A DNA stretch of 64,000 bases, from the NCBI GenBank assembly GCA_934772445.1, contig CAKVMJ010000001.1:6727-70726 (forward strand). The letters are read 5' to 3'. Origin of the DNA: an uncultured Clostridia bacterium. Lineage in GTDB: Bacteria > Bacillota > Clostridia > Christensenellales > UBA1242. The notes beneath the pieces were generated by a model. The model made no database searches. It saw nothing but the letters and a program-made list of their open reading frames with translations, and had not been told where the DNA came from. This document shows positions 8,547 to 43,139 of the stretch, piece after piece (the first letter of the stretch is position 1; each line of letters opens with the position of its first letter). Both the position numbers and the translations under genes were made by a program.

Positions 8547-8560
8547 AAACCTCTCTCCTT

Positions 8561-15301: not shown

Positions 15302-15401
15302 AAATTTCTCCTAATAATTAAACTTTACAATAATTATTAAAAAAAGTCAATAAAATGCAAATAAAAAAAGCCAACCATTTAATGATTGACTTTATTATTT
15401 G

Positions 15402-16292
15402 TTATTTTTTTTCTTTTTTATTTGTTTTACCAGCATTTAAAGTTTCTGCCATAGTGGTTGCCAATGTGGCAACATTTTGCAAATCACTAGGAACAATAAT
15501 CTTTGTGCTTTGGCCATCTGCTAAATACTTCAAAGCTTCAAATCCTTGCAATGTTAGATAAGCAGAATCTGGTTTTGCTTGCATAATTTTCTTTATTGCT
15601 TCAGCAGTACCTTCGGCTTCAGAAATTAAAGAGATTTTTTTAGCTTCTGCTCTTAAAATTGCAGATTCTTTTTCACCTTCAGCAACTAAGATACTACTCT
15701 TCTTTTCGCCTTCGGCTCTCAAGATTGCTTCTCTTCTTTCTCTTTCTGCTCTCATTTGTTTTTCCATCGCATCTCTAATATCTTTTGGAGGAAGAATATT
15801 TTTTAATTCAACACGATGAATTTTTATTCCCCAAGGATCGGTTGCTTCATCAAGAATAGAACGCATTTTGGTATTAACAATATCTCTTGATGTTAGAGTT
15901 TCATCAAGTTCCATTTCACCAACAATATTTCTAAGAGTGGTTGCAGTTAGATTTTCAATAGCAGCAAGAGGTCTATCCACGCCATAGCAGAATAATTTTG
16001 GATCTGTTACTTGGTAATATACCACTGTATCTATTTGCATAGTTACATTATCTTTTGTAATAACAGGTTGAGGTGGAAAATCCGCAATTCTTTCTTTTAA
16101 ATTTAGTGGAGTTCCTGCAACTCTATCAAAGAAAGGTAAAATCATATGAATACCAGTTTCCAATGTTTTATGGTATTTACCCAACCTTTCAATAACTAAA
16201 GCAGTTGATTGTTTTACAATCTTAACCGATGCTATTAAGATTAAAAACGCAACAACAGCTAAAACAATTAAAATTATAGCAAATGTACTCAT
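15402..16292 (-). CDS. SPFH/Band-7 (stomatin-like) membrane protein
   Basis: N-terminal TM helix, an SPFH core (VKQSTALVIERLGKYHKTLETGIHMILPFFDRV) and a C-terminal AEGEK repeat helix. Translationally coupled to nfeD (4-nt overlap). Confidence 0.85.
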   Translation of the reverse strand: MSTFAIILIVLAVVAFLILIASVKIVKQSTALVIERLGKYHKTLETGIHMILPFFDRVAGTPLNLKERIADFPPQPVITKDNVTMQIDTVVYYQVTDPKLFCYGVDRPLAAIENLTATTLRNIVGEMELDETLTSRDIVNTKMRSILDEATDPWGIKIHRVELKNILPPKDIRDAMEKQMRAERERREAILRAEGEKKSSILVAEGEKESAILRAEAKKISLISEAEGTAEAIKKIMQAKPDSAYLTLQGFEALKYLADGQSTKIIVPSDLQNVATLATTMAETLNAGKTNKKEKK

Positions 16293-16729
16293 TCTTTATC
16301 TCCTTTCTCAACGATATATTTATTACCGCTAATTTTTAATACTCTAACCAACTCACCTTTTTGAATTGGTTTATTATCCACTGAAACAACATTCCAAACA
16401 ACTCCATTAATCTTGATTGTTCCCATATTATCCTCAGTGATATCTGTTAACAATTTATATGTTTCGCCAAAAGCACTCTCGGCATTTGTTTTTGTGTTAT
16501 CTTTCTTTAATAAAAACTTTAAAGCAATTTTTCTTAAAGCTAGCAACAAAACTAAAGACAAAACTATAAAAACAACAAGTTGAATTTCCCATCTAACGCC
16601 TACGCTTGCAAGTATCATACAAACAATACCTCCAGCCACAAACCAGATAGAAGCCATTTCCATTGTAATAAATTCTATAATTAAGCTAAGAGCCGTAACA
16701 CCTAACCAAACCCAAATCATCCAATCCAT
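16289..16729 (-). CDS. NfeD-family membrane protein
   Basis: Three N-terminal TM helices plus a C-terminal OB-like domain (GTIKINGVVWNVVS...GELVRVLKISGNKYIVE). Shows the classic NfeD-SPFH operon pairing. Confidence 0.8.
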   Translation of the reverse strand: MDWMIWVWLGVTALSLIIEFITMEMASIWFVAGGIVCMILASVGVRWEIQLVVFIVLSLVLLLALRKIALKFLLKKDNTKTNAESAFGETYKLLTDITEDNMGTIKINGVVWNVVSVDNKPIQKGELVRVLKISGNKYIVEKGDKE

Positions 16730-16761
16730 AGTTTCTCCTTTTAAAAAATCAATAAATAGTT

Positions 16762-16789
16762 TTCCAAACCCTCCACCTAGGGTTTGGAA
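16762..16789 (-). terminator. terminator-like hairpin downstream of the giant gene
   Basis: TTCCAAACCCT (16762-16772) pairs with AGGGTTTGGAA (16779-16789): 11-bp perfect stem, 6-nt loop. On the minus strand it is followed by T-rich sequence, though the T-run is not immediately adjacent. Confidence 0.55.
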
Positions 16790-16848
16790 CTATTTTATTA
16801 ATATATATTATAATATTTTTTTATTAATTCAAAATGAATCGAATAATA

Positions 16849-19800
16849 TTAAGTTGGAACATGATAATAGTAGGCACTTTGCCAACGAGATGCACTTAAT
16901 GCATCAGTTTTGATACTTCTATTAGAATTCATCAATGATGACTCATCATAATAGTATAACACACCATTTTCTACATGGTCAAATATAACTACATGTTGAC
17001 CATTATAATGTACTATATCACCTTTCTTTATATTTGAATTAACTTTTCCACCAACTATAAAACTACCATTATAATTACCATAACCACTTGACTTTGCAAA
17101 GGCTAAATATCCTGCACTACCATTTTGCTTACCTAGATAACCATATAGTAATCTAACAAATCCCCAGCAATCTGTATAGATTAAACCAGAATTATTTTTT
17201 ATCATATTTATAGGAGCTGATAAATTATATTTAGTTACACCATCACCGCCATTATTTGTGTTGGCGCGTTTATCGCATTGCTTTGTGTAACTATCACTAT
17301 AATAGTGGATTGCATAATCGTATGACCATTCTACACCTTCTTGTGCGATAAAGTAATTAATAGCATTTATAACCCCCGGTACTTCCCCAGCTGGAGTATT
17401 ATCACCTCCACCCGGAGATGGATCCGGATCGGTTGGGTTCGTTGGATCTGTAGGATCAGTTGGATCTGTGCCTGAACCACCGCCCGGATTATATCCCGGA
17501 TTTAAACTTGGATTAGTTCCGTTTGCTTGGTCCTTACCTGGAAGAAGTTCTCCACCAGAATAAGCAAGTGACCAACCGAAATCGCAACTAGCAACTTTTC
17601 CGATAACTTTATCATATAGAGAATTACCAGAAGCAGTATAAGCTCTAACATCATAACTCAATTCATCATAAGTCATTGTGCCTTCTTTTAAAGCTCTAGT
17701 AGTGATTAAGTTATATAAATTTGGATGCCAATTATGATTTGAAGCTTTTAATTGAGAAACTGTATCAAAATCAATTTCCAATGTGATAGTTTCACCATTA
17801 TTGATAGTTTTTCTATCAGAAGCTTTAACCAAATTTGGATTTGAGAATAAACTTTTCAAATTGTAATCAATTGTTACGCTTTGATTTGCGTTAATAGCTT
17901 GTTGCCTTGCATACTCACGCCTTTTATCATCATATTCTGAACCTAAATATTGTGTTGTTTCTTGTCCATAAGATTTACTACCACCTGAAATTGTCCAGTT
18001 TTGGGTTCTTCTAGGAGGACCGCAATATTCTGCATTGCCTTTTGGTTCTGCATTATATGTTGCAGTTATTTTTGAATGTTCATAAACATAACTAATAAAT
18101 TCATAGTTATAATATAAACCATTAGACAACTCAACATTTAATTCGCAAAGCACTACTGGAATTAATCTTACATAACCTTGAACTGTTAATGTTCCGATTT
18201 CAATGGTTTCTGTTTTTGTACTGAAACTATAATTATCTGTACCCCAGCAATTATCCGGATCATCTACATAGTCATCAACCCAAATTGTTACTGGTACTGA
18301 AATCTCTCTTCTTGATATAATATTACCATTTTCATCATAAGTATATTCATACTCAGTTTCATTTTTAATTTCTTGGTGTCGTCCAACCCACTTTTTCATA
18401 TATTCAGTTCTAGTTGAATATCCAGAAGTACTACTGATTTGATAAGTGATATTTTGTTTTACATGTTGAGTTCCAGCAATACCAACATCAATAGTTGAAT
18501 ACCTACTTGATTGTTTTAAACTACCACCAGATGATGGAAGATATGTAAATGTATATGTTGCAGTTACATCTGGACTATTGAAGTCTGTTTGACCTTTTGT
18601 TGAGATGATGACCTGACCTGTGGCATCAATCAATTCAACCGTTCTATCAAGATGGCTTATCTTATATGGATCAGTTCCGCTATAACGCATACTTGTATTT
18701 GAATAAGTATCGCAATTTGGATCTGTATAACCAAGAGTTAAGTTATTACCAAGAATTTTACCAATATAATTGAATGTGTTATCTGTATTGTGGAAGTCTT
18801 GACCTGCTACAACAACTCTTGTTTTATTTTGAGTGAAGCCCGGAGTATCAAAACCAAGCCTATCAAACACACCAGATGAAGATAAAGATTTTGGCAAGTT
18901 TGCTTTTCGTTTAGTTGTGCAATTCGCACCCCTGCTTACACCATTACAAACCCAATAATCTCCATTTAATGTTAGCTTTCTACCATAATTTGTACAAGTA
19001 GATTTTTCACAATAATAACTAGAGATTATTTCATTAATCTTATATTTACCTTCTTCATAGCCATCGTTTCTATCGGTATATAATGTTGAAGTACTTTCAG
19101 TACTTGAAGAGATTTGCATTGTAACATCTCTAACAACTATATTTTTACTCTCTGTTAAAGATGAAGTACCAGCTGAATATCCAGCCAAACCTCCAACATA
19201 CATAGAACCCATTACAAAGCTTGAAACTCTTTGATTTGATGTATTATTTAATGAAAATCCTTCAACTCTTAAGTTTGTTGAACTACCCTTATTTCCAGCA
19301 TCTGTATCTATATATCCGAATAGTCCACCAACATAAGCACCACCAGATACTGTTCCGCCATCATCAAAATAAATTTTGCAATCTCCAATAATAGCTGAAG
19401 AATTTGCTAATGGGTCTGAATGGTAACTACCACAGATACCACCAACATAATCTCCTTGAGCTACAATTGAAGCTCCATTGTTAGAAACAGAGCCCAATTT
19501 AACATTTTGGCTTCCTCTAGTTGTACAATGGATTAATTCACCAACTATACCACCAACATACGAACCAGAAGCTGTAACTGAAGCACTATTGCTTGCACGC
19601 GTAACCGATGGAGATTTACATTCATCAGGTTTGATATTATTTTGACTATCATAAGCATACTCAATATCGCCCTTACCAAGAATACCCCCAACATAGTTTA
19701 CACCAGAAATTGGAACTGTGTTTGATGTGTTTGTATTTGTATCATTATCTCCTGTGATATAACAATCACCGATAGCATAACCACAGATACCACCAACATA

Positions 19801-22800
19801 CGAACCAGAAGCAGTTAAGCTATCATAAGTGTTATCTCCATTAATTCTATCTAATCTAGCAAAGCTATAGATTGAACCACCTTTAGAGTAACCTACAACG
19901 CCACCAACATAGTTAGTTCCGCCAACTCTTATTCCTCTATAAGAACCAGAGTAGCAAACTCCATGTAGATATCCTACGAATCCGCCAGTGTAATCTCCAC
20001 TAGCTGTAACTAAGATATTTAATCCGTTTTCATCTTTATTTGTTTTTAGTACCGCTTCAGCAGTTTCCATAGTAACAGCTTCTCCAGCAACACCACCTGT
20101 TTTAGTTCCGCCATTAACAGCTATATTTTCAATATTTCCGTTAACTTCTGCGTAACCAACATATCCGAAGGCACCACCAACATTACTATTACCATTGATT
20201 GAAGCAACACCATTTTGGATATCAACTCCACCACCAGTATAGCCAGATGTTGCACCAGAAACATATTTAGCATCTTGGTTAGCTCCATCAACTAATGGAT
20301 AATGATAAGCATAACTATTATTTGTTTTGTTAAAATCGTTATTTCTATCGTTTTGACCAAAGATTTCTTCATTGCCTGTTGATGGTTTTTTAACTGTATC
20401 AAATCCACCAGCAACATAACCAGCAACACCACCAATATATGCATTACCAGAAATGCTATATGTGGAATCACTAAATAATACTTGAATTCTTTCAACATCA
20501 ATACTTTCACAAACATAACCAGCAACACCACCAACATACGAGCCTGTGGAACTATCGCCAACAACTGTTACATTTGAAACTACAATAGATGTGTGAAGAT
20601 TTGTATTATTATTGAATGATGATTTCTTCTTTTTAAGAATACTACCATCAATATAACCTACAACACCGCCAACATAACTTGAACCAGTTATCTTCTGGTT
20701 TTCATTACCTTTTAATGAGAATTGACCAAGGATATCTCCTTCTTCAACCTTACCAGCAAATCCACCAACATAGGATAAACCATTGATTATAACTGAATCT
20801 GTGGTAACTGCTGCACCATTATATATATCTGCATAACAAGAATATCCAATAAATCCACCAACACAATCACTATTTGAAGAGATTGCTGAATTTTTAATAT
20901 CAATTCCACCGCTACCATATAGTGCAACTATAAATTCTCTTGGTTTATTATCTTTAGTTAAGTCAACGCCATATTTTAATAATACAGCACCAAATCCGCC
21001 ACCAACGCTTCTACCATTAGCAGTAAGATTTAAGTTATTTATCTCAAATCTATTCTTTTGATCGGCATCATCTCTTCTTAACGCACCAGAACCGCCACCT
21101 GCAAATGCATAAGTATTATTTCCATCGCCTGTTCCTGATGGTTTAATTCCTTCATATAAATACCAAGTTAGAGTTTTGCCTTGAACTTTATAATATTGAG
21201 AGAAATATGCATTAACTTCATCTTCGCTCAATGCTTTACCTGTTGCGTTAACTGTTGCATTATTTAACACAGTACTTGCAACATCGCCATAACCTACAAC
21301 GCCACCGACTGCATAAACACCTTCAACATTAGCATTATTCAATACAATTCTGCCAATGAAATTATCGCTATAACCAACTGCACCACCAACCATTGCATTA
21401 CCTTTAACAGTGATGTTTGCATTATTAGTTACTAGGTCAACACCTGCAACGATATTACCTTCACCAACAAGTCCGCCAACCCTATTTTGATTTGCTGATA
21501 CTTTAATAGTACCTGCAACCCAAACTAGGTTATCTTTTGTACTAGAAAGAGTATTACTACCCATTCCACCAACTAATCCACCAACTTTAACAGATTCAGC
21601 ATCTATAAATTCTTCAAGCCAACTTAAATAACGAGAATCTGAAGATTGTAATTCTTTTTGTTGACCATTTTCTGTAATCATCTTGCTTGGAAGAACAGCA
21701 ATATATGTGGAATTAACCATAATATTACTAAATGCTTCTAAGCCTCTAATATTATTATCAGCATTACCAACAAGTCCGCCAACGGATTTACCATTAGATG
21801 TTACATTAACACCGCTATCAGATATTAATGCGCCAACTTTATTTAATCTTAAACCAGCATAACCAATTGCGCCACCAGTGTTTGCACCTTTAGTTTGACC
21901 TCTATCATCAATTCTTGTTGAATTAACGAGTGTTATATTTCCAACATCAATATTATTATCTCCGTTGAAAATGAAATCTCCGCCAGATGCATCTTTATAT
22001 ATATCAGTGCTACCAATTGCACCACCAACATTATCACCATTTGCATTTAATGTTATGTTATAAGCCAAGATTCTGCGTTTTGCTCTATAGTATGGTTTTC
22101 CATCAACATCAGTTTCTGGAATTAATCCAACCTTTTCTTCATCAAAGTTTTTACTTATAAAGCTGCCGTTTGCATTTTTCTCATACGATAAGATTGTTTG
22201 ATTTACATGAGCTGAAAGCCTCATATAATCAGCAATCTTTCCGCCTGAAACTTTATATAACATAAAGCCTTCGAATGCACCAACTACGCCACCTATATTA
22301 TCGCCCATTGAAGAACTTAATGTTAGGTTTCTAACAGTTATTGTTCCACGCTCGCTTCCGCAATATGAATAATAACTTCCGCCATAAATATATGAACCGC
22401 CTGTGTTTGAAGTGGTTTTTGTGTAGTGTCCTAAATCCAAGGTTGATTTACCGAACGCACCACCAACATAATCACCTTGAGCATTAATTGTAACGGCATC
22501 AGCCATATTAATTCCGCCTACGGTAATTGTTCCATAAATTCCAACTTTTTGGTTTGCAAATTGCTTATCTGTACTGAAATTATCAACGAAATTATTTGTT
22601 GTAATCAATCCAGCAACACCACCAACAAAGCCTTCATTTGCATCTGTTTGGTCTTCTGCAAGCCTACCGCCTGTTAATTGCAATGCCTTAACACTAATAA
22701 CACCTGTAATTCCACCACGAATATATCCAGCAATACCGCCAACATATTTACCAGTTGTGGAAATTACCACATTATTAACATTCAACACTGCTGATAGTTT

Positions 22801-37800: not shown

Positions 37801-40800
37801 AAATCCTGAGAAATCAAAATCTGCAACTTTTGGAATTGTACTTGTAACTGTATTTACTAATTCACTATTTGATAATGTGAAGAATTTATTTCCATTGATT
37901 ACAGCATAGAAATTCTTGGTAACTGCAACAGCATTAATATTTGCGATTTCATCATCGGTTTTATTAACAGTATCTAAACCACTAACTAAGCCATATTCTG
38001 AAGAAATATTTGCTTTTACATAAGAATTTTCAACCGAATATCTATTATTTACAGTTTCAGTTTTGATTGAGCCATCTTGATTATAGCTTTGCAATTCAAC
38101 AACATCTTTCCAAACACCAACCAAACCTGAAACTTTAGGCATATTTGCGTTTGTATAAATGCTTCCATCGAAATAAGTTTTTGAAAGATTCAAAGTTGTT
38201 TCAGCATAACCAATTAAACCACCAATTGCGATTTCTTCATCGTTCCAGCCTTCAAAATTCTTTCCATAGATATTACCAAAGAAGTTTACACCATCTAAAT
38301 TAGATGTATTAAATCCCCTAACATAAGTTGCATTAATAACAACCATATTAATAGAACTATTAACTCCTGTGGCATAACCAATCAAACCACCAACATTTTG
38401 ATTAGCGACAATAGCTGAAGCATCAATACCATTTGTGTCTATTTCAGAAATTAAATAAACTTTTGAATCATTTAATTTTAAATATCCGCGAACCGCACCA
38501 ACTATACCACCAACATTTTTCTTTGCTCTTAGATTTGGATATGAAACCAAATTTTCAAATACCATAGAACCATCGGCATAACCAACAATTCCACCAACAT
38601 TTGCATAGTTAAATTCACCATCTTCATCAACTACAACAATATTTGCACTTGAAGCTAAATCATATAATGAATTTGAAACTGATGACCTATAATCAGCATA
38701 GCCAACAATTCCGCCTACATTTATAGATTTTGTAACAACACCACTTTGTTTATTTGCTTGAATAAATATAGCAACATCGCTATTTACAGATGTGGTTGTA
38801 ATATTTGAAGTCTGTTCTGGTCTGCCACTAATAATAGCATTAACTACTGCATTTCCATTATTAATATCTGTTGAAATAGCCTTACCAACCATTCCACCAA
38901 TATTAATTTGTTTATAGTTATAATTTTCGTTTCCCCCAACAAAGTTATCTGACCAATTATTTGCATCAATATTTATAACGCCTTCAACTCTACAGTTTGT
39001 AATACTTGTTGAAGTTAAGCCTGCAATTCCGCCAATATTTAATGATTTAAAATCAATTTTACTTGCTAAAACAGAATTATCATTTTCATCAGCAATTTGT
39101 GTTACAATTTTTGGCAATTTAATATTTATATTCATATTAACGCTTAAATTTTTAACAATTGCATTTGTACTATCAATAAATGGCAATACAGCGATATTTA
39201 AGTTTTTACTATAAGATTCACCATTTATCAAATTAGATAATTGGTTATTCTTTATAGTATCAGCCATTTCCTTTTCGTTAATATCCCAAGCAACATTTAA
39301 TGTGCTATATCTGCTATATGAAGTACCATTATATACATAATCTAATTTACCATTCAATGAGAATGTTGATAAATCATTACCTTCATTATCTTTTGCAAAC
39401 ACACCACTAATCTCATTCCAATCAAGTCCGTTATTTTCAGAAAGAGTTAGGTTGTTTTTCAAAACATAATAATAGTTAGTTTTTGAAGCCAAATCCAAAT
39501 ACATTTGTTTTAAATCGTTTATCTTTGAAATTTCAAATGCAGTTTCTTCAGATTTACCATCAGCCACTTTAACTCTTAAAACAATTTTAGTTGAAGCATC
39601 AACAGTGTTTCCAATTTGATACATACTATTTTCTGTTTGAATAGTTAAATAAGCAACACCAGCATTTTTAGGAACTATCTTAATTCTATTTGCATCAATG
39701 CTTCCATCTTCATTAACACCCTCAACTTCAAATACTTCGTTATCAAAGTTGCTAAGAATTATTCTATCTTTAAATACAACAACTGGTTCTGTTCTAAATT
39801 CAAGCTCGAATGAACTTGCAAAATTATCTCTCTTTTCGATATAAACGCCTGTTTCATCAACATTAGATAAGATAATATTTTCAATCTTATTTGCTCTTTC
39901 AATCTTTAAATTAACAAATTCAGCACCAACTAGTAATCCAAATTGTTCAACTGAAACTCTAAATTTAATATTTAAAGCGTTTGGATAAATCCAGTTATTT
40001 AATATTTCTTCAACATCTAAAGCAGTTAATTTATAATCTGTTAAATGGTTAATGCTTAGCCATTTATTAGCTATCATTTTTAATCCACTAACACCCTCTT
40101 CACTACCATCATAGCCGATTAATGAATAGAAATCCACTAAACGAACAGTTAATGAATTTTCATCAAATGTTGCAATATCCGAAAGCTTAACTCTTAAAAC
40201 ATTATTGTTCGAGAATTTAATTTCTCTTACAACAAGATTATTGAAGTAATCAACTCCATAATCGCTTTCAAATAAATACTTAAATTCAACACCAAGTTTT
40301 GATGAGGTTCTTAAACCACCCATTTCTGCAATTGATGGTTCAACACTATATTTTAATTGGTAGGTTGAATATTCATCAGCCTTATTTAAACCAACAGAAT
40401 TATAATCATAAATAACTGGTTCAACTTGGCTATTTATTGTAAATTTACTTAAAGGTTTGAAGCACCAAACTCTAACACTTTGTGAGTACTTTACAAGCTC
40501 ATACTTACCTTCTTCTTCATTCCATCTATAGCCAGAATAAGAGAAAGTTATAATAGCTGGTTCTGTAACGCTTGTAACAGCACCCGTGGTTACTATCTCA
40601 CCATTTTCCCAACTTAAATATTCAGAACCATGAATAGAAACTGAGCAATAATCAGTTATATCTAATCTTCTAGCCACTCTATTACCTAGAGCATCAACTG
40701 TTAGTATGTAATTATATAGTTTTAATCCAATTCTTGTTGGAGTTGATGAATTTTTATCATTAACTCTAACAACTAAATTTGAAATAGTTGAATATGAAAT

Positions 40801-43005
40801 ATCTGACCAAATTTCGTTAATATTTTCACTATTTCTCTTTACTGGATTATATAGAATTTGAGAATTCAATCTACTATCTGCATATATATCCCCATTTCTA
40901 AATACAGAATTATTATCAATTAAATCCATTACAAATGGATAATTTTGACCATCATTATTTGCAAAGAAAATTGGAATAAATAAGTTACAAATTGATTGAA
41001 TACTAACTGTGTTATAACCAGAAACCGCACTATTTAAAGCATATATCTTAATAGGAGTTACACCAACATTATTATTTGCATTTGGAACAACATAAAGTTT
41101 TGTACCATCAGCTCTTAATGTTAATAAATCTTTATTATATTCAGCGTTTTTAATATCAAAATATTCAGCAACTTTAACATTTTGTTCGCTCAAGTCTATC
41201 AACAATCGATCATCTAAATTTTGATATGTGATATCTATATTCAATTTATCAACGGCTAAATCTTTCAAAACTTCTTGGCTTAAAGATTTAACAATGTTTA
41301 ATCTTATAACTTTAACAAGAGAAGTTTCAATCTGTTTAAATGTACCATCAAATTCTCTCTCACCTGTTGAAATACTGAAATTAAATGCAATTCTCAAAGA
41401 ATATTCATCAACTAAAGCATCAACTTCTTCATTAGTTAGATTATGTTTGATATAGAATAAGCTTCCGCTCTTTCCGCCACTAACATTATTACCATTAACA
41501 TCAATAAATCTAATTGGAGAGTTGTTTACATTAAATTCTTCCCCATTTTTCAATAAAGATAATGAATATCTTCCTGAATATAAAGGTTCTGCAACAACCT
41601 TAATTTTCGTACCTTGAATACCATAATAATCTTTAAAAACGCTAACATTTTTCAATGTTGAATCATCGTTTACAAATATTTCTCTTGGCATATTTGAAAC
41701 AGAAACTCTTACTTTAACTTCTTTAGTAAATTGACCTGGGTAATCTTTATAATCAATAACGAAAGTTATTAAAGCAGAATCAGATGTGTTAGCAATATCA
41801 GAAGATAATTTATAACTAGCACATTTAACTAAATTACCTAAATCTCCGCCCATTCCATCGAAATAACTACTATCAAAATTAGAAACTTCAGCAACAACAT
41901 ATTTTGATGGAGCAGAAACAACTTGTCCTGAACCTGTTTTTCTTATAATTTTATTATCAGCATCTTTGATTGAAACAATATAATTTTCATCATCACTTCC
42001 ACCAAGTTGTCCAATCTTAAATGTTAAAATTCTATTAATTAAATAATCATAATTTTGTTTTTCTTCTTCAGTTAAACCTTCTTGCAAAATATTCAAATTT
42101 GCCATTCCGATTTCATATTCGCCTTTAGCATTTTTTGAAACAGCAAATATTCCATTTCCATCAGAACTATTTGAATAAACAAACATATTATTATCTGAGA
42201 TTATATCAACAACCTCAATTGCCTTTGTTGCAACAATTGGTTCAATACCCTCTTTATCAACAGTATCAAGTGCTGTAACTTTAATAGGAACGCAAACTTT
42301 TCCTGCAGAAGTTATTCTATTTGGATTAAATAAAACATCATCTTTATTTATGCCACTTTTAACTCTTAAAACACTATTTACTATTTCAAAGTTATCAGTT
42401 AACCATTTAAGCCTACCAACATTACTTGGATCACTCAATGAATTTGTGCCAACTAGATAATCTTTATCAAATTCAACTAGCACATTTTTTCTACTAATAT
42501 CATTAGGAACGAAAGTTAAAACATTATCACCAGTTGGTGAAAAATCTAAGCCTTTACCATTTACATCTAAAGCTCTATTATTCACAGATAAAGAAGTAAT
42601 ACCTTTTTCGATATTAACTTTAATAATCTTCTTTACTCCGCCTTCTTTAGTTAAAACAGTTATGATAGATTCACCATCTAAGCGTGGAGTTATCTTAACA
42701 TAGTTTTTATTATCTCTAAATTCTTTGGTATAGGAAACTTTTTCATCTGTTTGAATATTAATTTCCTTACTAACCTCATCTTTACCAACAACTGTTATCA
42801 CAATTGTTTTCTCTTCAGCATTAGTTACCAAAACACCATCTTCAATTCTTGAAGAAATAGCTAGAGTGATGGTATCTTCTTCAGATATAATATTACCATC
42901 AACCTCCACATTTATTTTTAAGCCCTCATAAGGATTTCCGCAAGCAAACAAAAAACCTAATGAACAAATAAATGTCATTACAATTACTAGCAATCTTTTT
43001 TTCAT
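16849..43005 (-). CDS. giant surface lipoprotein (~8,718 aa from the best start) with Ig-like modules, six GLUG-repeat arrays, a coiled-coil insert and a C-terminal NlpC/P60/CHAP-like peptidase domain
   Basis: Single uninterrupted ORF (track: 16849..43065, 8738 aa). The best start is ATG 43005, which has GGATGGAA 9 nt upstream and gives MKKRLLVIVMTFICSLGFLFAC (signal peptide plus lipobox). The alternative ATG at 43014 and the TTG at 43065 lack a well-placed SD. Domain evidence is listed in the sub-features. Confidence 0.9.
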   Translation of the reverse strand: MKKRLLVIVMTFICSLGFLFACGNPYEGLKINVEVDGNIISEEDTITLAISSRIEDGVLVTNAEEKTIVITVVGKDEVSKEINIQTDEKVSYTKEFRDNKNYVKITPRLDGESIITVLTKEGGVKKIIKVNIEKGITSLSVNNRALDVNGKGLDFSPTGDNVLTFVPNDISRKNVLVEFDKDYLVGTNSLSDPSNVGRLKWLTDNFEIVNSVLRVKSGINKDDVLFNPNRITSAGKVCVPIKVTALDTVDKEGIEPIVATKAIEVVDIISDNNMFVYSNSSDGNGIFAVSKNAKGEYEIGMANLNILQEGLTEEEKQNYDYLINRILTFKIGQLGGSDDENYIVSIKDADNKIIRKTGSGQVVSAPSKYVVAEVSNFDSSYFDGMGGDLGNLVKCASYKLSSDIANTSDSALITFVIDYKDYPGQFTKEVKVRVSVSNMPREIFVNDDSTLKNVSVFKDYYGIQGTKIKVVAEPLYSGRYSLSLLKNGEEFNVNNSPIRFIDVNGNNVSGGKSGSLFYIKHNLTNEEVDALVDEYSLRIAFNFSISTGEREFDGTFKQIETSLVKVIRLNIVKSLSQEVLKDLAVDKLNIDITYQNLDDRLLIDLSEQNVKVAEYFDIKNAEYNKDLLTLRADGTKLYVVPNANNNVGVTPIKIYALNSAVSGYNTVSIQSICNLFIPIFFANNDGQNYPFVMDLIDNNSVFRNGDIYADSRLNSQILYNPVKRNSENINEIWSDISYSTISNLVVRVNDKNSSTPTRIGLKLYNYILTVDALGNRVARRLDITDYCSVSIHGSEYLSWENGEIVTTGAVTSVTEPAIITFSYSGYRWNEEEGKYELVKYSQSVRVWCFKPLSKFTINSQVEPVIYDYNSVGLNKADEYSTYQLKYSVEPSIAEMGGLRTSSKLGVEFKYLFESDYGVDYFNNLVVREIKFSNNNVLRVKLSDIATFDENSLTVRLVDFYSLIGYDGSEEGVSGLKMIANKWLSINHLTDYKLTALDVEEILNNWIYPNALNIKFRVSVEQFGLLVGAEFVNLKIERANKIENIILSNVDETGVYIEKRDNFASSFELEFRTEPVVVFKDRIILSNFDNEVFEVEGVNEDGSIDANRIKIVPKNAGVAYLTIQTENSMYQIGNTVDASTKIVLRVKVADGKSEETAFEISKINDLKQMYLDLASKTNYYYVLKNNLTLSENNGLDWNEISGVFAKDNEGNDLSTFSLNGKLDYVYNGTSYSRYSTLNVAWDINEKEMADTIKNNQLSNLINGESYSKNLNIAVLPFIDSTNAIVKNLSVNMNINIKLPKIVTQIADENDNSVLASKIDFKSLNIGGIAGLTSTSITNCRVEGVINIDANNWSDNFVGGNENYNYKQINIGGMVGKAISTDINNGNAVVNAIISGRPEQTSNITTTSVNSDVAIFIQANKQSGVVTKSINVGGIVGYADYRSSVSNSLYDLASSANIVVVDEDGEFNYANVGGIVGYADGSMVFENLVSYPNLRAKKNVGGIVGAVRGYLKLNDSKVYLISEIDTNGIDASAIVANQNVGGLIGYATGVNSSINMVVINATYVRGFNTSNLDGVNFFGNIYGKNFEGWNDEEIAIGGLIGYAETTLNLSKTYFDGSIYTNANMPKVSGLVGVWKDVVELQSYNQDGSIKTETVNNRYSVENSYVKANISSEYGLVSGLDTVNKTDDEIANINAVAVTKNFYAVINGNKFFTLSNSELVNTVTSTIPKVADFDFSGFNITDGTVNAGDWFVNEKANDGQPIILKLLNGKLIPLYDYLPENLYASLYNLRFNNRAYIELSNSLDTEKNIVIFYNSNDNGLTNVVNNKYLIGVDGIFSNATNYNYSRLININLGGSVSSIKTNYVELLLNGEISIKSSDVDNKILKIKGNLIETLGTGVVDLTFYHTFNPEIRTVVHLVVVDGLSNVKLYNTNIEKQEVSAVSVGVENFEQIYVDEEANYLLESENIFNAGVSGEIIYKANQNIGAIIEILDAETLGDGYTNGQIQIIHSGEILTDLNIGSIVYIDCINNLSSLIFKGTKTGKVYLKITPVLSLENISGITSFDAKYIKTDDTEINIKSELANGKNIKTIDALAKEYAFSVDAKAKQVVIENEDAQIQPSGSDEVNIKVRTANVAIIDKEDGVTGIKVYNADGTEDVNSLAILNEKIFIDFLYYDTTNKTYTKVDSLVSLENAPFDERYKNIENKSLVVIEQNQAFVTKIEGSSEFIIHYNVTFRFNKDRYKENATSFNLDELKYLVKFYAESNPLANDTYDFVIAAADPEKITATFYSQNENSDDKFAENPGTTLSPGYTGLLKVQVSEKFSNCSYLTVELDETSKDLYKYLNITQVRAKLQKDPVEDLYHTIEYYPILTTIDENGVVKLEKTSSEYEINKKIVFDDIFFLRFSLDENYKLENPEREIKLVIKAYNSKGTQVGSTLIKPLTVKPLPEIDVYINNSSSFYNKTEIQPGDFKQIFWSAKNFDSIVEVSVRYANENYNQTLLIVDENGLNSFKKNNGNYIDDGDNGFNGIFEEGKNYYLVCLNSFFEANNILNLDKFENVTMIEITATVSKVGVINPTSASVSVQVVPLEIKEVALAGSTTNGEKNTLEVLNGTSNGLQMLINPSEDSSDDTNIFRQIYGFKEDNQNGKYIIFNGNYVALDDEIEKSKAVDKFATITGYYKRTEILDRFDEYNHPLLNLTEVDDNVYLYEPISKNYINLKEMISGGQYFLLNNGYYLLNVLDIIPGQTNGDPLTLNDFAELDFKFEINGVTFSAENILGESYLDYIQYYYANEQRYYSLKYMIENGGLFKGGEKEIYWKFNSQNHLNLTIGEAESNYTKYEYFRVAVPVERFYNLEEIKEILGENGNGYEKQVCSIVLYKNRIYNINEYKLYRFDASQNDADFVNLYGQFIDITNRYSMMDFSNKEKAQFAISGIYIEEDGTKTFVTGSKANFYYKVLNNDGEVSEIKLVDGMNCGGYIFKAETKTKVINGTKYNFYYYSLKAINVGNVGTIVVRFDYFYDADGEIRSYVINDDEMNDDNYVYENDGYRSRIYDKKLDCKYNLYSIEYEFDLVVKENTTYDHPNPIYSQDDFEKMLEGQHYIMMNDITLENYIPRVGNMASLDGNGYILKIDSFDLRESRGLETVNVGLFSEIVELYTDVSTGKTGTPIVKNMIIDIGSLLTSDEDIKKYTTDDTNLVYKYINNFVTSADIAENLGTYNNTVSSHKLDLAFNKEVNFGVLAGVNNGSVTNIKVISTGKGDMKDVNIHILTSGIIDGVNTKLSFGGITAINNGAITNSFVGINNILTTDENNNLQINNEISIWKNKISEEGVRNINGEGESATLTVNPFKLAGSGRIAGIAVQNTNIISSTFAKAVGIENAYKGVDYNETGAFVVENTGKILNSFVEGYEFNQNSDKYRTTQDYAVSSENNVSGFVYSNTGSIENAYSAVALKTHSSNSSGFVYDNTGSIKNAYTTSYNTAIKAGNSGSLAHGAFNRWLDEEGGNTAEFIDCYYLVGEGESELPYEKAVGISGVKNKKTGNTPEFEQSNFFIGFIFLDDEENSVWTMTELGPKLCNTSLVETFSHRILSGMINEETGEVIYDKDAGVDSELDFSELTLIERAQYTYNYKYADNYEYGTRQNPLLVSTAEQFVNFIIENSKTYTGNDNRTVRIFGKTAEEQDTDTFKTINYIRQINDLDFAIENEVNIWNTPKSGVLLREVVFLGNLEGNGLSINNLNLTFKNETEANINSHNFGLFNQIGLNVDNRNKLGITDSYAGAVIKNLNIDLVAYLGVQTTPDKAGILAGSIYNSTIINVNLTSSNNESAVVKGKNLVGGIAGLIIDDTVELNADRTNIYDIEVKDLKVRSTYEDLIYTSAYTNPYGTYKKFATTQMDHTVIKSYALVDIENKNDTSLNSYISNKIGSLSYAGSVAGLVYIDSNIDSNESERIENSIKNDGFNEGVYTATKATISDVSVKGEFDIFAENAGGLFGYLGSNSKISNVAIYSPNNEKKIGIKAKNYGGGIVAENKGVIEKAQVLYENETQTVFDAEINNWNNLGKVNESVETSGLFTVDTENYRGKIISIGGIAGYNNGGTIYDSMVKVPITSDYALIAGGLIGYAENFTLIGYSYTTSSVYANEIVGGTVGYYYVGAIDEDDETHSTFNLNYALYLEHIISLNKWGGKVRTALENNVSHLFTDANVDYKFTLRMAEIGNQQITSYSRIGRQQVAGKENEYTYYNMDAVENANLSYKNNSSSFTYVGSLIGSVMVDNNIITNTTTGAFINYSENSVIDRYGFIKQDKTGDLTGNEFGSYFNGVVSTTYATLTTSGNADDENLSMIYGVINQTLPSTSRTTTYNLANAELFSNGVTKAEKIDNKSIGEVFGDYKYTSIMVENGKPTSTQQYLQNITGFYENVDTLPSGSTNETIDKMSSVNLFTNVYTIYKYNADGSYAIDGNGQREVDYKINATLVNPENLTARENYVWMKASDEYLAKYKLAGYSNFATITNSQELIDALSKPDNARFYTMETVSTDVYADASYDGKYIIDLTQISNRSNYARFNTVFRGVLNGLVDEDGRKPIVVLKTGQIVDDEYYSVYALLNELNGAVLKDIDFEIEIDNSRNVGKIYGSENGNFGIIATRVNLSTIEECTFTIKSNGNLKFELAYNEIEEGFNNIQNFGVIFGEVTASNIVGKENGNIKLIFDNNIEAIEVRTGTASTIGGLIGLAQSSSLYNIIVEAKANKLVFNALVNYGRIIDNKIDLNFAGVVAKSNSNSISNVELKNININADYDINSNYTYNMRRYGVYFDMYFGGIVASTSYSTITNVSNNYGIDINLQRDGVEEVSKASTYSIYVGGISGSMLYTNVVNAKAGRLNISKIKVNAHYFYNYVGGLVGYVQDNCSISGNKQTENEYGNYSDIDVSILEGVKDNAYIGGLIGYNKASGNVVTNMFNLGNVSTSKVKAVNGDILDSVGIINLGGLVGYSDNGTYSFVYNAGDVQAVESNLVEMNIGGLIGFAKVVQITNFVMYGDIYYYSRSDFYNNIGGIIGSASLTTIELRKGYSIARFVCENDKDGLNNVNVEVTYNANLNTIASICNSDNTSEVYFVAEFYAKYADVAMSTEILSKAYDYDSYTDLDNSKNGTIAIGYADFIELSGNKLEGDEFVSIQMGTNGNFSQVNCLATMLNPVELGKFDFKTGTKLNPEIVLGNPTLAPEGYYILIDDADVTVPQEFAGVMVGRNKDLTNSQENTPLISANRGKDYPILSSCKIDTLESTGIISGFAIKVMEDASEYSFIGTNNGRVFNCVTFGEVTSDINGSGNYDNPTIVSSFLKNNNSDIYRSGAVVTYTGMIIGNVYREKDIQTQKDIVKQDLVVSGFVYENAGIIKDCYSTANTDWVAKYHTTYNGDVKNYDITITDATNDDQIPTGERKDSLVAVGLAYINRTRSYSGISQSFHAMEFIDYKVDLVGIEITIDKNAEVQTYRTSDTGTNTFNNAKTDDLLDKNISYFINIDDEGNNIWDKSYRDTNYYLYNSRQGVVIPTGIEAKLVYNVDNDSNEIYVNAEEGTINYPNGQAKDGDIENIFPSKPNSVLEGSTYNLFQQKSNSYIIKSERDFARYLLTSDIYGYKDLRLQDRIDYPVYILNDSTQAKVYNLGTVAEEPINFKDITEEFIGFRITLTGFELKGPLFDVNSGTIAGITFKSLSLTDEQLDYDKDVAIVVGENEGSLNWIFAGGCTIQSRKNNIGIIASKNFGTIGNVKVTNSTIGAFNNNYGSNAGAIAGVNSGTIGGGYGAVMVGSAMESGVNISGIMNIGGMVGVNNGSISSGVAIYKSNITGIDESSSLVGGIAGSSSSSIQSACVIGCTITNSGEMTGGMIGYVQSGTIGQEETYLISHTFVANSTITGNGDYIGGVVGSAEGTLESVCLIDSNVGYQDEKNRADYVGGIAGYASLDITKPYVVAGNGSVSVSGNSDYVGGVVGKVYGTIYRFRVAPSSSGNGAITIKGLGNYVGGVAGYAYGLIYSEYSAQTALIYDMKNVSVTAGTTRDDSVEGGNFVGGVAGYAGSDIQTINVKELSVSSMANDQGMGFIGGVAGYSSASITESNALTIRVSTSGKADYVGGIAGLGELLDNVNAEDINVSAKGRYVGGMAGMASDIEQSNITKADVTSQIESVGDSLDSRLRKAFEKLLDQIEKTINDCESLNAMVEPYRNAEEFSNIDLIDYSMLSNTLKPQVEQSLEELITLMKNKEQYFDKQDLNKEERDYYIGLLEIANDAELFNDFIDEINSNIINQVNKIINAINKYISNKKKELQQKLQEGDSTAYDNISAEIDKLAEKSAKVENSMHTFKNKAGNYVYVANDAESVYSRYASGSVSSSALSSNYFGSTGKIAGFKPLLSSSNKSKLESELSKLKKDYNELITPQRITDSEGNVEIRRYSKSQFVSRYKALEKSAIDIVCKYAQEEINSLTKQIQTLQSQGDKLISAIEKSSDLKNELNELETLKKQADGYKTKFNETLKDAIENRDEVLDIIRELEEIKDNLKSKFSSAVRNYKKNYSYVGGVAGSVSMLYDVIAKDINATTNGVFLGGIAGQLTGMASNVQLDVDKNTSNAVTSSFNASVHKENHTLLDGAFVGGGFGIAGELNLYLVGKTQDQGQVYREISNASISGSNETNTFVNKTTVTAQGSFVGGLAGFSGALDGTIFVQDTNVASTMDYVGGMSGSIGDNSIWRNNKSKEAGDDNVSSANRDCKLSAVLNVNNVVISTTGKYVGGIAGYIRGGITGVISVKALQLTGGRLAEDQTDANEGFVGGVAGLITTNNFVDNFSTDKQFANQKVGIYGTITVGGINMADAVTINAQGDYVGGAFGKSTLDLGHYTKTTSNTGGSYIYGGSYYSYCGSERGTITVRNLTLSSSMGDNIGGVVGAFEGFMLYKVSGGKIADYMRLSAHVNQTILSYEKNANGSFISKNFDEEKVGLIPETDVDGKPYYRAKRRILAYNITLNANGDNVGGAIGSTDIYKDASGGDFIFNGDNNIDVGNITLVNSTRIDDRGQTKGANTGGAIGYAGLRLNKVGALISDSGVNVTSNGKSVGGLVGNADNNIRGLEAFSNIMVNSTYIAVLPSKMITENGQQKELQSSDSRYLSWLEEFIDAESVKVGGLVGGMGSNTLSSTKDNLVWVAGTIKVSANQNRVGGLVGEGNIVAGVDLVTNNANITVKGNAMVGGAVGYSDNFIGRIVLNNANVEGVYAVGGVVGYGDVASTVLNNATVNATGKALSEDEVNAYFSQYYKVQGKTLTWYLYEGIKPSGTGDGNNTYAFAGGGSGALRRDDADQKNRFEINNLNLTANGRSVGGGFGAVLLKYGVDLTKDNKPREFIVALYGSGGIDIKNSAISSNSDCVGGFIGYSCYADIYNGAAVTTDSVIINGLSYVGGFAGKVEEGDILGQFSLKGNENQKITGSSYVGGVVGYIDGSILKKKKSSFNNNTNLHTSIVVSNVTVVGDSSTGSYVGGVAGYVCESIDVERIQVLFSDSTYSISGNAYIGGVAGYVAGGFDTVKKPSTGNEEIFGQNDRNNDFNKTNNSYAYHYPLVDGANQDAKYVSGATSGYTGGGVDIQNGVASINGNSNVGGAFGYVGYAEVNGNIENIAVNGGTKTGGVAGEAVTMETAEAVLKTNKDENGLNILVTASGDYTGGFVGYLHGVCYSGSYRGIRVGGTNYVGGVVGYSKGGSIYSFARLDRINGDNTYDSLTASGSYVGGICGYAIGDCYITGDNDTNTNTSNTVPISGVNYVGGILGKGDIEYAYDSQNNIKPDECKSPSVTRASNSASVTASGSYVGGIVGELIHCTTRGSQNVKLGSVSNNGASIVAQGDYVGGICGSYHSDPLANSSAIIGDCKIYFDDGGTVSGGAYVGGLFGYIDTDAGNKGSSTNLRVEGFSLNNTSNQRVSSFVMGSMYVGGLAGYSAGTSSLTESKNIVVRDVTMQISSSTESTSTLYTDRNDGYEEGKYKINEIISSYYCEKSTCTNYGRKLTLNGDYWVCNGVSRGANCTTKRKANLPKSLSSSGVFDRLGFDTPGFTQNKTRVVVAGQDFHNTDNTFNYIGKILGNNLTLGYTDPNCDTYSNTSMRYSGTDPYKISHLDRTVELIDATGQVIISTKGQTDFNSPDVTATYTFTYLPSSGGSLKQSSRYSTIDVGIAGTQHVKQNITYQISSTSGYSTRTEYMKKWVGRHQEIKNETEYEYTYDENGNIISRREISVPVTIWVDDYVDDPDNCWGTDNYSFSTKTETIEIGTLTVQGYVRLIPVVLCELNVELSNGLYYNYEFISYVYEHSKITATYNAEPKGNAEYCGPPRRTQNWTISGGSKSYGQETTQYLGSEYDDKRREYARQQAINANQSVTIDYNLKSLFSNPNLVKASDRKTINNGETITLEIDFDTVSQLKASNHNWHPNLYNLITTRALKEGTMTYDELSYDVRAYTASGNSLYDKVIGKVASCDFGWSLAYSGGELLPGKDQANGTNPSLNPGYNPGGGSGTDPTDPTDPTNPTDPDPSPGGGDNTPAGEVPGVINAINYFIAQEGVEWSYDYAIHYYSDSYTKQCDKRANTNNGGDGVTKYNLSAPINMIKNNSGLIYTDCWGFVRLLYGYLGKQNGSAGYLAFAKSSGYGNYNGSFIVGGKVNSNIKKGDIVHYNGQHVVIFDHVENGVLYYYDESSLMNSNRSIKTDALSASRWQSAYYYHVPT
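16852..17384 (-). other. C-terminal NlpC/P60/CHAP-like papain-fold cysteine peptidase/amidase domain of the giant protein
   Basis: IYTDCWGFVRLLYG (candidate nucleophile Cys, codon 17167-17169) and KKGDIVHYNGQHVVIFDH (candidate His) occur in the order and spacing typical of NlpC/P60 and CHAP enzymes. Confidence 0.6.
17385..17515 (-). repeat. Pro/Thr/Asp-rich low-complexity linker (TDP tripeptide repeats), locally GC-rich
   Basis: Encodes NPGYNPGGGSGTDPTDPTDPTNPTDPDPSPGGGDNTPAG. The DNA is visibly more GC-rich than the surrounding sequence. Confidence 0.85.
18919..19011 (-). other. four-cysteine cluster (C-x4-C-x16-C-x8-C) in the giant protein
   Basis: Encodes YYCEKSTCTNYGRKLTLNGDYWVCNGVSRGANCTTKRK, just after the last GLUG array. 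Confidence 0.5.
19130..23385 (-). repeat. GLUG-type repeat array 6 (about 32 copies)
   Basis: Recurrent x-[YFN]-[VI]-G-G-[IVLMAF]-[AVIFCS]-G-[YSKE] cores roughly every 40-80 aa, for example SYVGGVAGY, NYVGGVVGY, DYVGGICGS and MYVGGLAGY. Confidence 0.75.
23400..24545 (-). other. ~380-aa alpha-helical / coiled-coil insert between GLUG arrays 5 and 6
   Basis: Lys/Glu/Leu-rich heptad-like sequence (SRLRKAFEKLLDQIEKTINDCESL ... LTKQIQTLQSQGDKLISAIEKSSDLKNELNELETLKKQADGYKTKFNETLKDAIENRDEVLDIIRELEEIKDNLKSKF). It is interrupted by a Ser-rich segment. Confidence 0.7.
24575..25830 (-). repeat. GLUG-type repeat array 5 (about 13 copies)
   Basis: Examples: MNIGGMVGVNNGSISSG, DYIGGVVGSAEG, DYVGGIAGYASL, NYVGGVAGYAYG and RYVGGMAGMASD. 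Confidence 0.75.
27870..28895 (-). repeat. GLUG-type repeat array 4 (about 9 copies)
   Basis: Examples: STIGGLIGLAQSS, IYVGGISGSMLY, NYVGGLVGYVQDN, AYIGGLIGYNKASGNVVTN and NNIGGIIGSASL. Confidence 0.75.
30575..31640 (-). repeat. GLUG-type repeat array 3 (about 8 copies)
   Basis: Examples: AGILAGSIYNSTIINVNL, LVGGIAGLIIDD, NAGGLFGYLGSN, ISIGGIAGYNNGGTIYDSMV and NEIVGGTVGYYYVG. Confidence 0.7.
32540..33320 (-). repeat. degenerate GLUG-like array 2 (about 6 copies)
   Basis: Examples: FGVLAGVNNGSVTNIKV, FGGITAINNGAITNSFVG, VSGFVYSNTGSIENAYSA and SSGFVYDNTGSIKNAYTT. Confidence 0.6.
38105..39045 (-). repeat. GLUG-type repeat array 1 (about 8 copies)
   Basis: Examples: LNIGGIAGLTSTSITNCRVEG, INIGGMVGKAIS, INVGGIVGYADYRS, QNVGGLIGYATG and VSGLVGVW. 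Confidence 0.75.
42940..43005 (-). other. lipoprotein signal peptide and lipobox of the giant protein
   Basis: MKKRLLVIVMTFICSLGFLFAC-GN has a positive n-region, a hydrophobic core and an L-F-A-C lipobox. The Cys codon is at 42942..42940. Confidence 0.7.
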
Positions 43006-43110
43006 AACTTTCATTCCATCCATAAACTTATTATTTGTAATTTTATTTTTATAATAACAAATCAAACAAAAATATTTAAGATTTATTATTACTTATTAAT
43101 TACTATTAAT

Positions 43111-43139
43111 AGTATATCTATTTTGTCGAAACTTGTCAA
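43111..43139 (-). promoter_or_regulatory. sigma-A-type promoter of the giant gene
   Basis: Minus strand reads TTGACA (43139..43134), a 17-nt spacer, then TATACT (43116..43111). The predicted leader is about 100 nt to the ATG at 43005. Confidence 0.6.

Follow-up and report, generated by a model that had tools for sequence, protein, structure and literature searches.

Large surface or membrane proteins that carry the GLUG motif (Pfam PF07581) are found in Firmicutes, Fusobacteria, Bacteroidota and gut archaea, though to our knowledge the motif itself has no established function. Giant surface proteins also occur outside this group, the staphylococcal adhesins Ebh and Embp being examples. Proteins of 10,000-30,000 amino acids (aa) have been reported from gut Clostridia, and the giant extracellular proteins of these bacteria are generally read as adhesion-related (West-Roberts et al. 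2023, bioRxiv 10.1101/2023.11.21.568195). GLUG-related repeats have been reported as solenoids (PDB 3N6Z; PMC4021314) and are carried by some classes of immunoglobulin A1 protease (PMC4021314), and GLUG membrane proteins of a gut archaeon have been proposed to be adhesin-like (PMC9723798). Here we analyze a stretch of 64,000 nucleotides (nt) from an uncultured Clostridia bacterium (GenBank assembly GCA_934772445.1, contig CAKVMJ010000001.1, positions 6,727 to 70,726), referred to as the window, in which a single minus-strand gene at 16849..43065 takes up about 41% of the sequence and encodes a predicted GLUG-repeat lipoprotein of some 8,700 residues. With moderate confidence, we interpret this protein of megadalton size as a modular surface fibre or adhesin-like protein, held by a lipid anchor, in which the GLUG arrays would form solenoid rods and whose core function would not depend on the enzyme-like domain at its C-terminal tip.

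The likeness to described GLUG proteins lies in a Gly-rich repeat of ~30-36 aa (..VGG[IV][AV]G..), a surface or membrane signal and a gut habitat. In contrast to them, the giant protein is far larger, with ~61 units in 5-7 arrays set amid ~5,000 aa of unmatched sequence, and it has a lipobox anchor and a 390-aa helical insert while lacking the metalloprotease, G5 and LPxTG elements. With Ebh, Embp and the giants of West-Roberts et al. it shares a megadalton extracellular character in a Firmicute, a probable fibre shape and surface-contact role and, for the latter, the mammalian gut. Those proteins, however, consist for the most part of recognisable domains repeated many times (FIVAR/GA, RCC1, Listeria-Bacteroides repeats, dockerin, leucine-rich repeats) and have a C-terminal membrane or LPxTG anchor, or none, whereas the protein described here has an N-terminal lipobox, uses GLUG as its repeat type and is non-repetitive and unmatched over more than half of its length. 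Giant surface proteins of gut Firmicutes are known already, nothing here overturns current understanding, and size alone gives no ground for high interest, because even longer proteins have been reported from gut Clostridia. What appears new, judged by sequence, is the architecture, which matches no described family. This had been suggested by the initial annotation of the locus, and it agrees with library searches that return GLUG alone and with a C-terminal 759 aa that finds only the ortholog of a sister species.

The gene forms one open reading frame (ORF), which has 8,738 codons if the first TTG is taken as its start. The ATG at 43005, from which all aa positions given here are counted, gives a product of 8,718 aa with no stop before the terminal one; public gene callers choose the ATG at 43023, 18 nt upstream, which yields 8,724 aa (MDGMKVMKKR...), and either start leaves the protein with a valid signal peptide. 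The initial annotation had described one intact gene with its own promoter and a perfect 11-bp hairpin, and we arrive at the same picture: the reading frame is unbroken, both signals are present (the promoter agreeing with the consensus at 11 of 12 positions, the T-tract after the hairpin being imperfect), and transcription is probably independent. The following gene, nfeD, starts 120 nt past the stop codon with its own ribosome-binding site, and the giant gene is likely monocistronic.

Misassembly had been named beforehand as an outcome that would undo this picture, and neither the repeat content nor independent assemblies bear it out. Direct repeats within the gene are 30-57 nt long and 60-80% identical, with none that is long or near-identical, and Tandem Repeats Finder reports one trivial 21-nt repeat; since the intragenic repeats are only short and diverged, repeat-driven misassembly is unlikely. 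Assemblies from more than 10 gut samples agree with the gene at 99-100%. Contigs L008-L013 and L015-L017 align to window positions 33352-54092 at 99.6-100% identity and L001-L006 to 12942-22376 at 95-100%, the seeming split of the gene in L001 being a scaffold N-gap with no frameshift. The complete 8,724-aa gene is called on Logan contigs of SRR29133749 and SRR12199318, and other Logan contigs carry 8,509, 8,071, 7,505 and 6,150 aa of it, each ended by the contig edge. The N-terminal 2,966 codons are stop-free in all 10 loci tested, at 98.9-100% aa identity. Public copies differ from the window protein by ~1%, and an exact-sequence match is absent for both choices of start.

Relatives of the giant protein are few. 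An exhaustive HMMER search of its C-terminal 759 aa against 1.84 billion cluster representatives returned one match, a 1,417-aa fragment (P0021) that is 57% identical. A scan of genome contigs with the resulting two-species alignment leads to contig L007, where a single 5,000-aa query had found nothing. The ORF on L007 extends past the edge of the 10-kb flank; it aligns colinearly to aa 3344-8496 of the giant protein, with few indels and 66% identity across at least 5,155 aa. Housekeeping proteins of this sister species are 92-97% identical to those of the window, with rnc at 70% and rimM at 83%. The ratio of nonsynonymous to synonymous substitution rates (dN/dS) is 0.28 for the giant gene as compared with 0.02-0.06 for smc, plsX, ffh and ftsY, with a synonymous rate (dS) of ~0.9 in all of them, and by region it runs from 0.14 (aa 3345-4700) to 0.37 (the long array). 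These ratios indicate purifying selection together with amino acid change about six times faster than in the neighbouring genes and, on this comparative evidence, the gene is functional yet fast-evolving. Fast amino acid change under purifying selection is typical of exposed surface proteins. A third and more divergent contig, L014, encodes an N-terminal 327 aa that is 86% identical, with the lipobox intact, and scans of JGI metagenomes and viral contigs reveal no relative. As far as these sequence searches reach, the giant protein is effectively an orphan limited to one genus-level lineage.

The protein has a calculated mass of 953 kDa and an isoelectric point of 4.7. Its signal peptide, MKKRLLVIVMTFICSLGFLFAC with G next, is its sole hydrophobic segment and carries the lipobox LFAC with Cys22. 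By inspection it fits the bacterial lipoprotein pattern (of the PROSITE PS51257 type: an n-region with positive charge, followed by a hydrophobic h-region and, no later than residue ~35, [LVI][ASTVIF][GAS]C), as the initial annotation had it, so that lipidation itself is predicted. The giant protein lacks LPxTG and NPxTG motifs and does not end in a hydrophobic segment, and a sortase substrate was rejected as a candidate for want of LPxTG. The organism clearly appears to use lipoprotein anchoring, because two further lipobox-bearing ORFs lie in the window. One encodes the 818-aa lipoprotein described below; the other, a 290-aa ORF at 390-1262 (-), has the lipobox FTFIGC and a C-terminal transmembrane segment.

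A profile derived from the protein itself finds ~61 GLUG-type units, spaced 36 aa apart at the median and sharing the consensus NISAGGDYVGGIAGYADGSI..., grouped into 5 dense arrays and 2 degenerate ones (Table 1). A profile built from the N-terminal arrays detects 23 units in the C-terminal arrays and the reverse search 13, and since the two find each other, all arrays can be taken as one repeat type. The alternation of GLUG arrays with long non-repeat spacers, as first described, thus stands under this count, but only two tiles of a Pfam scan made by tiles, with hits examined down to E<=10, pass the PF07581 gathering cut-off of 20.5 bits (aa 863-1822 at 24.1 bits and aa 4311-5270 at 23.7 bits). 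When the protein was scanned as two halves of ~4,400 aa, Pfam returned zero families, and the densest, C-terminal arrays went unmatched as well, because the bias correction of HMMER (131-290 bits) cancels the summed GLUG score. Giant repeat proteins of such a kind are likely to be systematically under-annotated. Near-identical public fragments of the giant protein were also missed by a word-indexed homolog search. The GLUG profile matches no solved structure in the PDB. AlphaFold2 (AF2) was run on single sequences, there being no admissible homologs, and gave a mean predicted local distance difference test (pLDDT) score of 39.3 for aa 6001-6700, the GLUG parts of this low-confidence model staying below 50. 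The long array is 60-69% identical to the ortholog. Beyond the arrays, more than half of the protein (~5,000 aa) is non-repetitive and has no database match: sequence searches of Pfam, NCBIfam, PHROGs and the PDB return nothing except GLUG, bar sub-threshold or chance-level matches, those in NCBIfam, PHROGs and the PDB being limited to coiled-coil or T-cell receptor entries aside from the sub-threshold CwlO match described next.

At its C-terminal end the protein had been assigned an NlpC/P60- or CHAP-like peptidase domain. The PF00877 match (E=0.0048, profile positions 14-101 of 105) scores 17.3 bits against a cut-off of 23, and a profile of the two known alleles finds in the PDB only the Bacillus subtilis DL-endopeptidase CwlO, at E=0.38, with KKGDLVHY..QHVVIF aligned to KRGDLVFF..GHVGIY. 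The tip as a single sequence has no match in the PDB, and the exhaustive HMMER search with the C-terminal 759 aa contains no NlpC/P60 relative at E<=0.001. The putative catalytic Cys8613 (17167-17169) lies in YTDCWGFVRLL and the putative catalytic His8671 (16993-16995) in KKGD..HY..QHVVIF, both being kept in both strain alleles, and a low-confidence AF2 model places a helix directly after Cys8613 and strands later, with the Cys and His of the triad assigned. NlpC/P60 is the only enzyme family matched in both Pfam and the PDB, and because the two independent libraries give the same family with the motifs in the right order, membership of the tip is plausible on sequence grounds. The NlpC/P60 claim therefore keeps its conserved motifs while falling below the thresholds, whereas the CHAP alternative falls away, with no PF05257 match at E<=10 in the C-terminal tile. 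As in the DL-endopeptidases CwlO and LytE of B. subtilis and MepS of Escherichia coli, the ~170-aa tip aligns to nearly the whole profile and has a DC(W)GF Cys motif followed by a GD..H...QHV..F His motif in the expected order. It differs from them in its sub-threshold scores, in a Trp in place of the usual Ser after the catalytic Cys, in having no cell-wall-binding modules (LysM, SH3b), and in its position on an 8,500-aa protein from which it can be lost.

That loss is seen in the sister species. The L007 ORF ends at the equivalent of aa 8496 and is followed by linker-like remnants and then by the 3' end of band7, in keeping with a deletion of ~1.95 kb (at L007 15400-15640, equivalent to window 15621-17568) that has removed the linker, the tip, nfeD and two-thirds of band7. 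Two further contigs in the European Nucleotide Archive (ENA) encode the same C-terminal end (P0021 and P0022), which makes a real deletion probable. Through this deletion the 3' remnant of band7 is joined to the end of the giant gene, and the nfeD-band7 pair is inactivated as well. The tip is thus dispensable and accessory to the giant protein, and the enzyme is not its core function, because the sister species deleted the tip and kept at least 5,155 codons of the gene. On this point we part from the initial annotation, in which the C-terminal peptidase was an integral part of the protein.

We envisage the protein at work as follows, with lipidation, the solenoid and fibre geometry, adhesion and peptidase activity being what we infer. 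The N-terminal signal peptide would direct export by the Sec pathway, and acylation of the lipobox Cys22 would hold the N-terminus in the outer leaflet of the cytoplasmic membrane, leaving the remaining ~8,700 residues to fold outside the membrane as a long modular fibre. Along this fibre, the 5-7 GLUG-type arrays would form beta-solenoid rods that alternate with unique globular modules, with the ~390-aa helical insert breaking the arrays. The fibre would extend through and past the cell wall and make surface contacts, for example in adhesion to host mucus, glycans or other cells, and the proposed exposed position would account for evolution about six times faster than in the housekeeping neighbours and still under purifying selection. 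The free end would present the conserved Cys-cluster domain and then, in the window species, a flexible linker and the NlpC/P60-like cysteine peptidase module, which would cleave the peptide stems of peptidoglycan and would be an accessory, lost by the sister species while the rest of the gene was kept.

Several observations weigh against this interpretation. The Pfam tile scan contains no adhesin-type binding domain (Ig-like, leucine-rich repeat, lectin, MucBP and similar), and the NlpC/P60 matches lie under both curated and statistical thresholds. With mean AF2 pLDDT values of 30.6 for the C-terminal part and 39.3 for aa 6001-6700, the solenoid rods and globular spacers are deduced rather than seen. 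The most constrained part of the protein, aa 3345-4700 with a dN/dS of 0.14, is entirely unannotated; enzymatic or other functions could be hidden in the ~5,000 unmatched aa; and the presumed envelope type of the organism depends solely on neighbouring sporulation genes.

The strain variation of the tip bears on a first alternative. Over the last ~83 codons (16852-17100) the window is 84% identical in nt to L001, L002, L004 and L005, as compared with 98-100% elsewhere in the gene; the proportions of synonymous and nonsynonymous differences (pS and pN) are 0.27 and 0.16, there is a 4-codon indel, and the DNA downstream is 100% identical. By this pattern, the segment looks like a recombined allelic cassette within the C-terminal half of the tip domain; both alleles are of the same domain type, with no swap to a different toxin fold. 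It is conceivable, though we think it unlikely, that the protein acts in contact-dependent antagonism, the fibre being a delivery stalk and the tip a tethered toxin that would cut the peptidoglycan of neighbouring Gram-positive cells, by analogy with the polymorphic toxins WapA, CdiA and Rhs and their swappable C-terminal toxin domains. An enzyme-like domain at the free C-terminal end behind a flexible linker, an extreme C-terminus that is the sole polymorphic part among strains and resembles a recombined cassette, the absence of the tip from the sister species and one YD-like motif upstream of it would all suit such a role, and the very long, filament-like extracellular form with a strain-variable, enzyme-like C-terminus missing in a close relative is shared with those toxins. 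However, the variation covers half of the domain while the catalytic Cys and His are retained, and the NlpC/P60 assignment is itself sub-threshold. The 119-nt gap 3' of the giant gene contains a terminator only and is followed by genes for NfeD (PF01957) and Band_7 (PF01145) proteins that are conserved and identical across the tip alleles, leaving no immunity gene directly downstream of the tip. Nor, unlike in WapA, Rhs/YD and CdiA systems, is there a pre-toxin demarcation motif, a recognised pre-toxin or trafficking domain in the family scans, an Rhs/YD shell, a context of type V, VI or VII secretion systems (T5SS, T6SS, T7SS) or LXG proteins, or any orphan toxin cassette visible within the window.

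Also unlikely, in our judgement, is a role in remodelling the producer's own wall. The protein would then act from the membrane, as a tethered scaffold or autolysin, and its tip would open the producer's peptidoglycan. Such remodelling could serve passage of the fibre through the wall, growth, cell separation or sporulation, with the repeats as spacer or regulator. In the PDB the tip comes closest to CwlO, a DL-endopeptidase related to growth, the gene lies among genes for the division and sporulation proteins DivIC, YabP, YabQ and SpoIIID and for an M23 peptidase, and a protein of ~1 MDa must traverse a thick wall. Yet the sister species lacks the tip while at least 5,155 codons of the gene remain intact, an 8,500-aa tether far exceeds those of known autolysins, and a dN/dS of 0.28 is atypical of housekeeping wall enzymes. 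Bolder, and in our view improbable, is the idea that the protein represents an undescribed contact-dependent weapon or attachment device of monoderm gut bacteria, that is, a lipid-anchored fibre of ~100 nm made of orphan modules, with a swappable, recombining peptidoglycan-peptidase tip, which would operate without a T7SS/LXG system, WapA/Rhs elements or an immunity gene and would hold several new folds in its ~5,000 unmatched aa. A host-directed enzyme of the immunoglobulin A1 protease type, that is, a surface-bound protease or other enzyme acting on host proteins, is very unlikely: the presence of GLUG in some classes of these proteases (PMC4021314), the human-gut source of the organism and the capacity of a papain-like domain to cut proteins instead of peptidoglycan would fit, but no HExxH or other metalloprotease motif occurs in all 8,718 aa, on which ground an immunoglobulin A1 metalloprotease-like enzyme was rejected, no peptidase family is found besides the weak NlpC/P60 match, and G5 and LPxTG features are missing. 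Lastly, that the gene is a repeat-driven misassembly or a decaying, non-functional remnant can be dismissed as extremely unlikely and was rejected, for although all available data are short-read metagenome assemblies and many contigs end inside the gene, it has no long repeats, independent assemblies concur at 99-100% with two holding the complete 8,724-aa gene, an ortholog is intact across 15.5 kb in a second species, and dN/dS is well below 1 in each region.

Under our preferred interpretation as a modular surface fibre, the remaining parts of the protein can be placed along its length, as compiled in Table 1.

Table 1. Features of the giant gene and its product, with window coordinates
Feature	aa	Coordinates	Strand	Basis or remarks
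Sigma-70-type promoter, TTGACA-N17-TATACT		43111..43139	-	11/12 positions match; best site of region
Alternative ATG starts (43023, 43005) and lipoprotein signal peptide		42940..43023	-	MKKRLLVIVMTFICSLGFLFAC; lipobox L-F-A-C, Cys22
N-terminal non-repeat region	23-1300	39106..42939	-	No family match, no internal repeats
GLUG array 1, 7 units	~1301-1640	38086..39105	-	Pfam PF07581 24.1 bits, 5 stretches; motif and profile maps
Unique spacer, ~1,560 aa	1641-3200	33406..38085	-	No family or PDB match; ends with cap-like ...SLDGNGYILKI, aa ~3117
Degenerate GLUG-like stretch	~3201-3480	32566..33405	-	By reading the sequence; profiles do not detect it
Spacer	3481-3800	31606..32565	-	Cap-like motif FLGNLEGNGLSINNLNL at aa ~3720; 72-78% identical in ortholog
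GLUG array, 4 strong units	~3801-4140	30586..31605	-	Motif and profile maps
Unique spacer	4141-4690	28936..30585	-	81% identical to ortholog; inside most constrained stretch measured
GLUG array, 7 units	~4691-5060	27826..28935	-	Pfam PF07581 23.7 bits, 4 stretches
Unique spacer	5061-5780	25666..27825	-	Includes degenerate GLUG-like patch, aa ~5260-5400
GLUG array, 11 units	~5781-6150	24556..25665	-	Motif and profile maps
Alpha-helical (coiled-coil-like) insert	~6151-6540	23386..24555	-	AF2 helices; residue composition
Long GLUG array region, ~32 units	~6541-7960	19126..23385	-	Consensus ..GDYVGG[VI]AGY..
Conserved C-terminal non-repeat domain	7961-8500	17506..19125	-	No relatives beyond own 50% identity cluster
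4-Cys cluster	C7999/C8004/C8020/C8029	18919..19011	-	All four invariant in sister-species ortholog
Low-complexity G/T/D/P linker	~8501-8545	17371..17505	-	TDPTDPTDPTNPTDPDPSP
NlpC/P60-like papain-fold domain (tip)	~8546-8718	16852..17370	-	Sub-threshold Pfam PF00877, conserved motifs
Terminator-like hairpin, 11-bp stem and 6-nt loop		16762..16789	-	60 nt past stop codon; T-tract imperfect, AACTATTTAT

The spacers, of 320-1,560 aa, are not paralogous among themselves and have no match in Pfam, NCBIfam, PHROGs or the PDB; for the spacer at aa 4141-4690, a two-species profile likewise finds none in the PDB. A cap-like motif, '...[LF]xGx[LF][DE]GNGxxI', precedes two of the arrays (aa ~3117 and ~3720), and because a similar one occurs in an 818-aa GLUG-type lipoprotein encoded elsewhere in the window, the sequence suggests that modules of the 'cap + GLUG array' type may be strung together in the giant protein. 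Most of the smaller parts listed in the initial annotation were recovered: its ~380-aa coiled-coil insert corresponds to a helical insert of ~390 aa, and both the 4-Cys cluster and the TDP linker are present. The 'Big_2-like' N-terminal modules were not, since aa 23-1300 have no Pfam match at E<=10 and no tandem repeat structure. In the helical insert, the single-sequence AF2 model reaches a pLDDT of up to 74 in long helices that run over aa 6150-6541, helix-favouring residues (E/K/L/Q/A/R) make up a fraction of 0.41, and coiled-coil families are matched weakly. Conservation is lower here than in any other part of the protein, with ~40% identity over aa 6201-6400 and a dN/dS of 0.33 for aa 6151-6540. 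The AF2 model of the C-terminal part, at a pLDDT of 30.6, is unusable. Within the C-terminal domain, a lone YD-repeat-like motif, TEYEYTYDENGNIISRRE, lies at 18307-18357 (-) (aa ~8217-8233) and has a weak TIGR01643 match at E=0.061; its YD..G core is retained in the ortholog, and a single motif does not amount to an Rhs shell.

The window is chromosomal, with ~29% GC. Housekeeping genes typical of Firmicutes lie in it (rimM, trmD, ffh, ftsY, smc, rnc and plsX), together with a gene for acyl carrier protein and with genes for SpoIIID, YabP, YabQ, DivIC and an M23 peptidase, the last five of which point to a walled, monoderm-type Clostridia cell. The giant gene sits between nfeD-band7, on its own strand, and an oppositely oriented gene for a PP-loop ATPase, and no secretion, sortase, glycosylation or immunity genes adjoin it. 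To call the locus a 'new cell-surface system', as had been proposed, therefore goes too far for a lone gene among housekeeping genes with none of these dedicated functions beside it. GC content climbs to 0.34-0.35 over the Gly-rich GLUG arrays at 18000-26000, whereas the N-terminal half of the gene has 0.27-0.30 and the remainder of the window 0.22-0.33; the rise probably comes from many Gly and Ala codons, not from foreign origin. A horizontal island was rejected as a candidate, the locus being the same in the sister species and its GC fitting the genome except in the Gly-rich arrays, as was a prophage or tail-fibre origin, for which no PHROG or viral match was found.

Other ORFs of the window encode possible surface proteins. 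The 818-aa lipoprotein (51063-53519, -) combines the lipobox LVLVGC with a GLUG-like array and a cap-like motif, LFGNGKQISNFRI, and shares 24% identity with array 1 of the giant protein. It belongs to a 90% identity cluster of n=11, has no Pfam hit on record and, by these features, seems to be a relative of the giant protein with one module only. A 488-aa protein (54559-56025, -), with an N-terminal hydrophobic segment, leucine-rich-repeat-like LxLxxNxIxxL motifs and a C-terminal transmembrane tail, is on its sequence features a probable further surface protein near both GLUG lipoproteins. Two adjoining ORFs of ~205 aa (2191-2820 and 2841-3452, both -) are alike by eye and represent a tandem duplication.

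Among GTDB representatives, the sole genome match is a metagenome-assembled genome from the Hadza human gut, 'uncultured Clostridia bacterium' (CAKVHY010000003.1), which carries the sister-species ortholog. The remaining sources are metagenome assemblies and read archives, in which only one further contig has a named source, the Hadza gut again, and the giant gene is found in many samples. If our interpretation is correct, the giant protein would be among the largest lipoproteins yet predicted and would give an uncultured Clostridia lineage that recurs in human-gut metagenomes, including those of Hadza hunter-gatherers, a prominent and fast-evolving surface structure. Its ~5,000 aa without a detectable relative are a concentrated source of possibly new folds and make the protein a test case for the annotation of 'dark' giant proteins, while the dispensable, recombining NlpC/P60-like tip offers a testable handle on whether the fibre serves wall remodelling, antagonism or adhesion.

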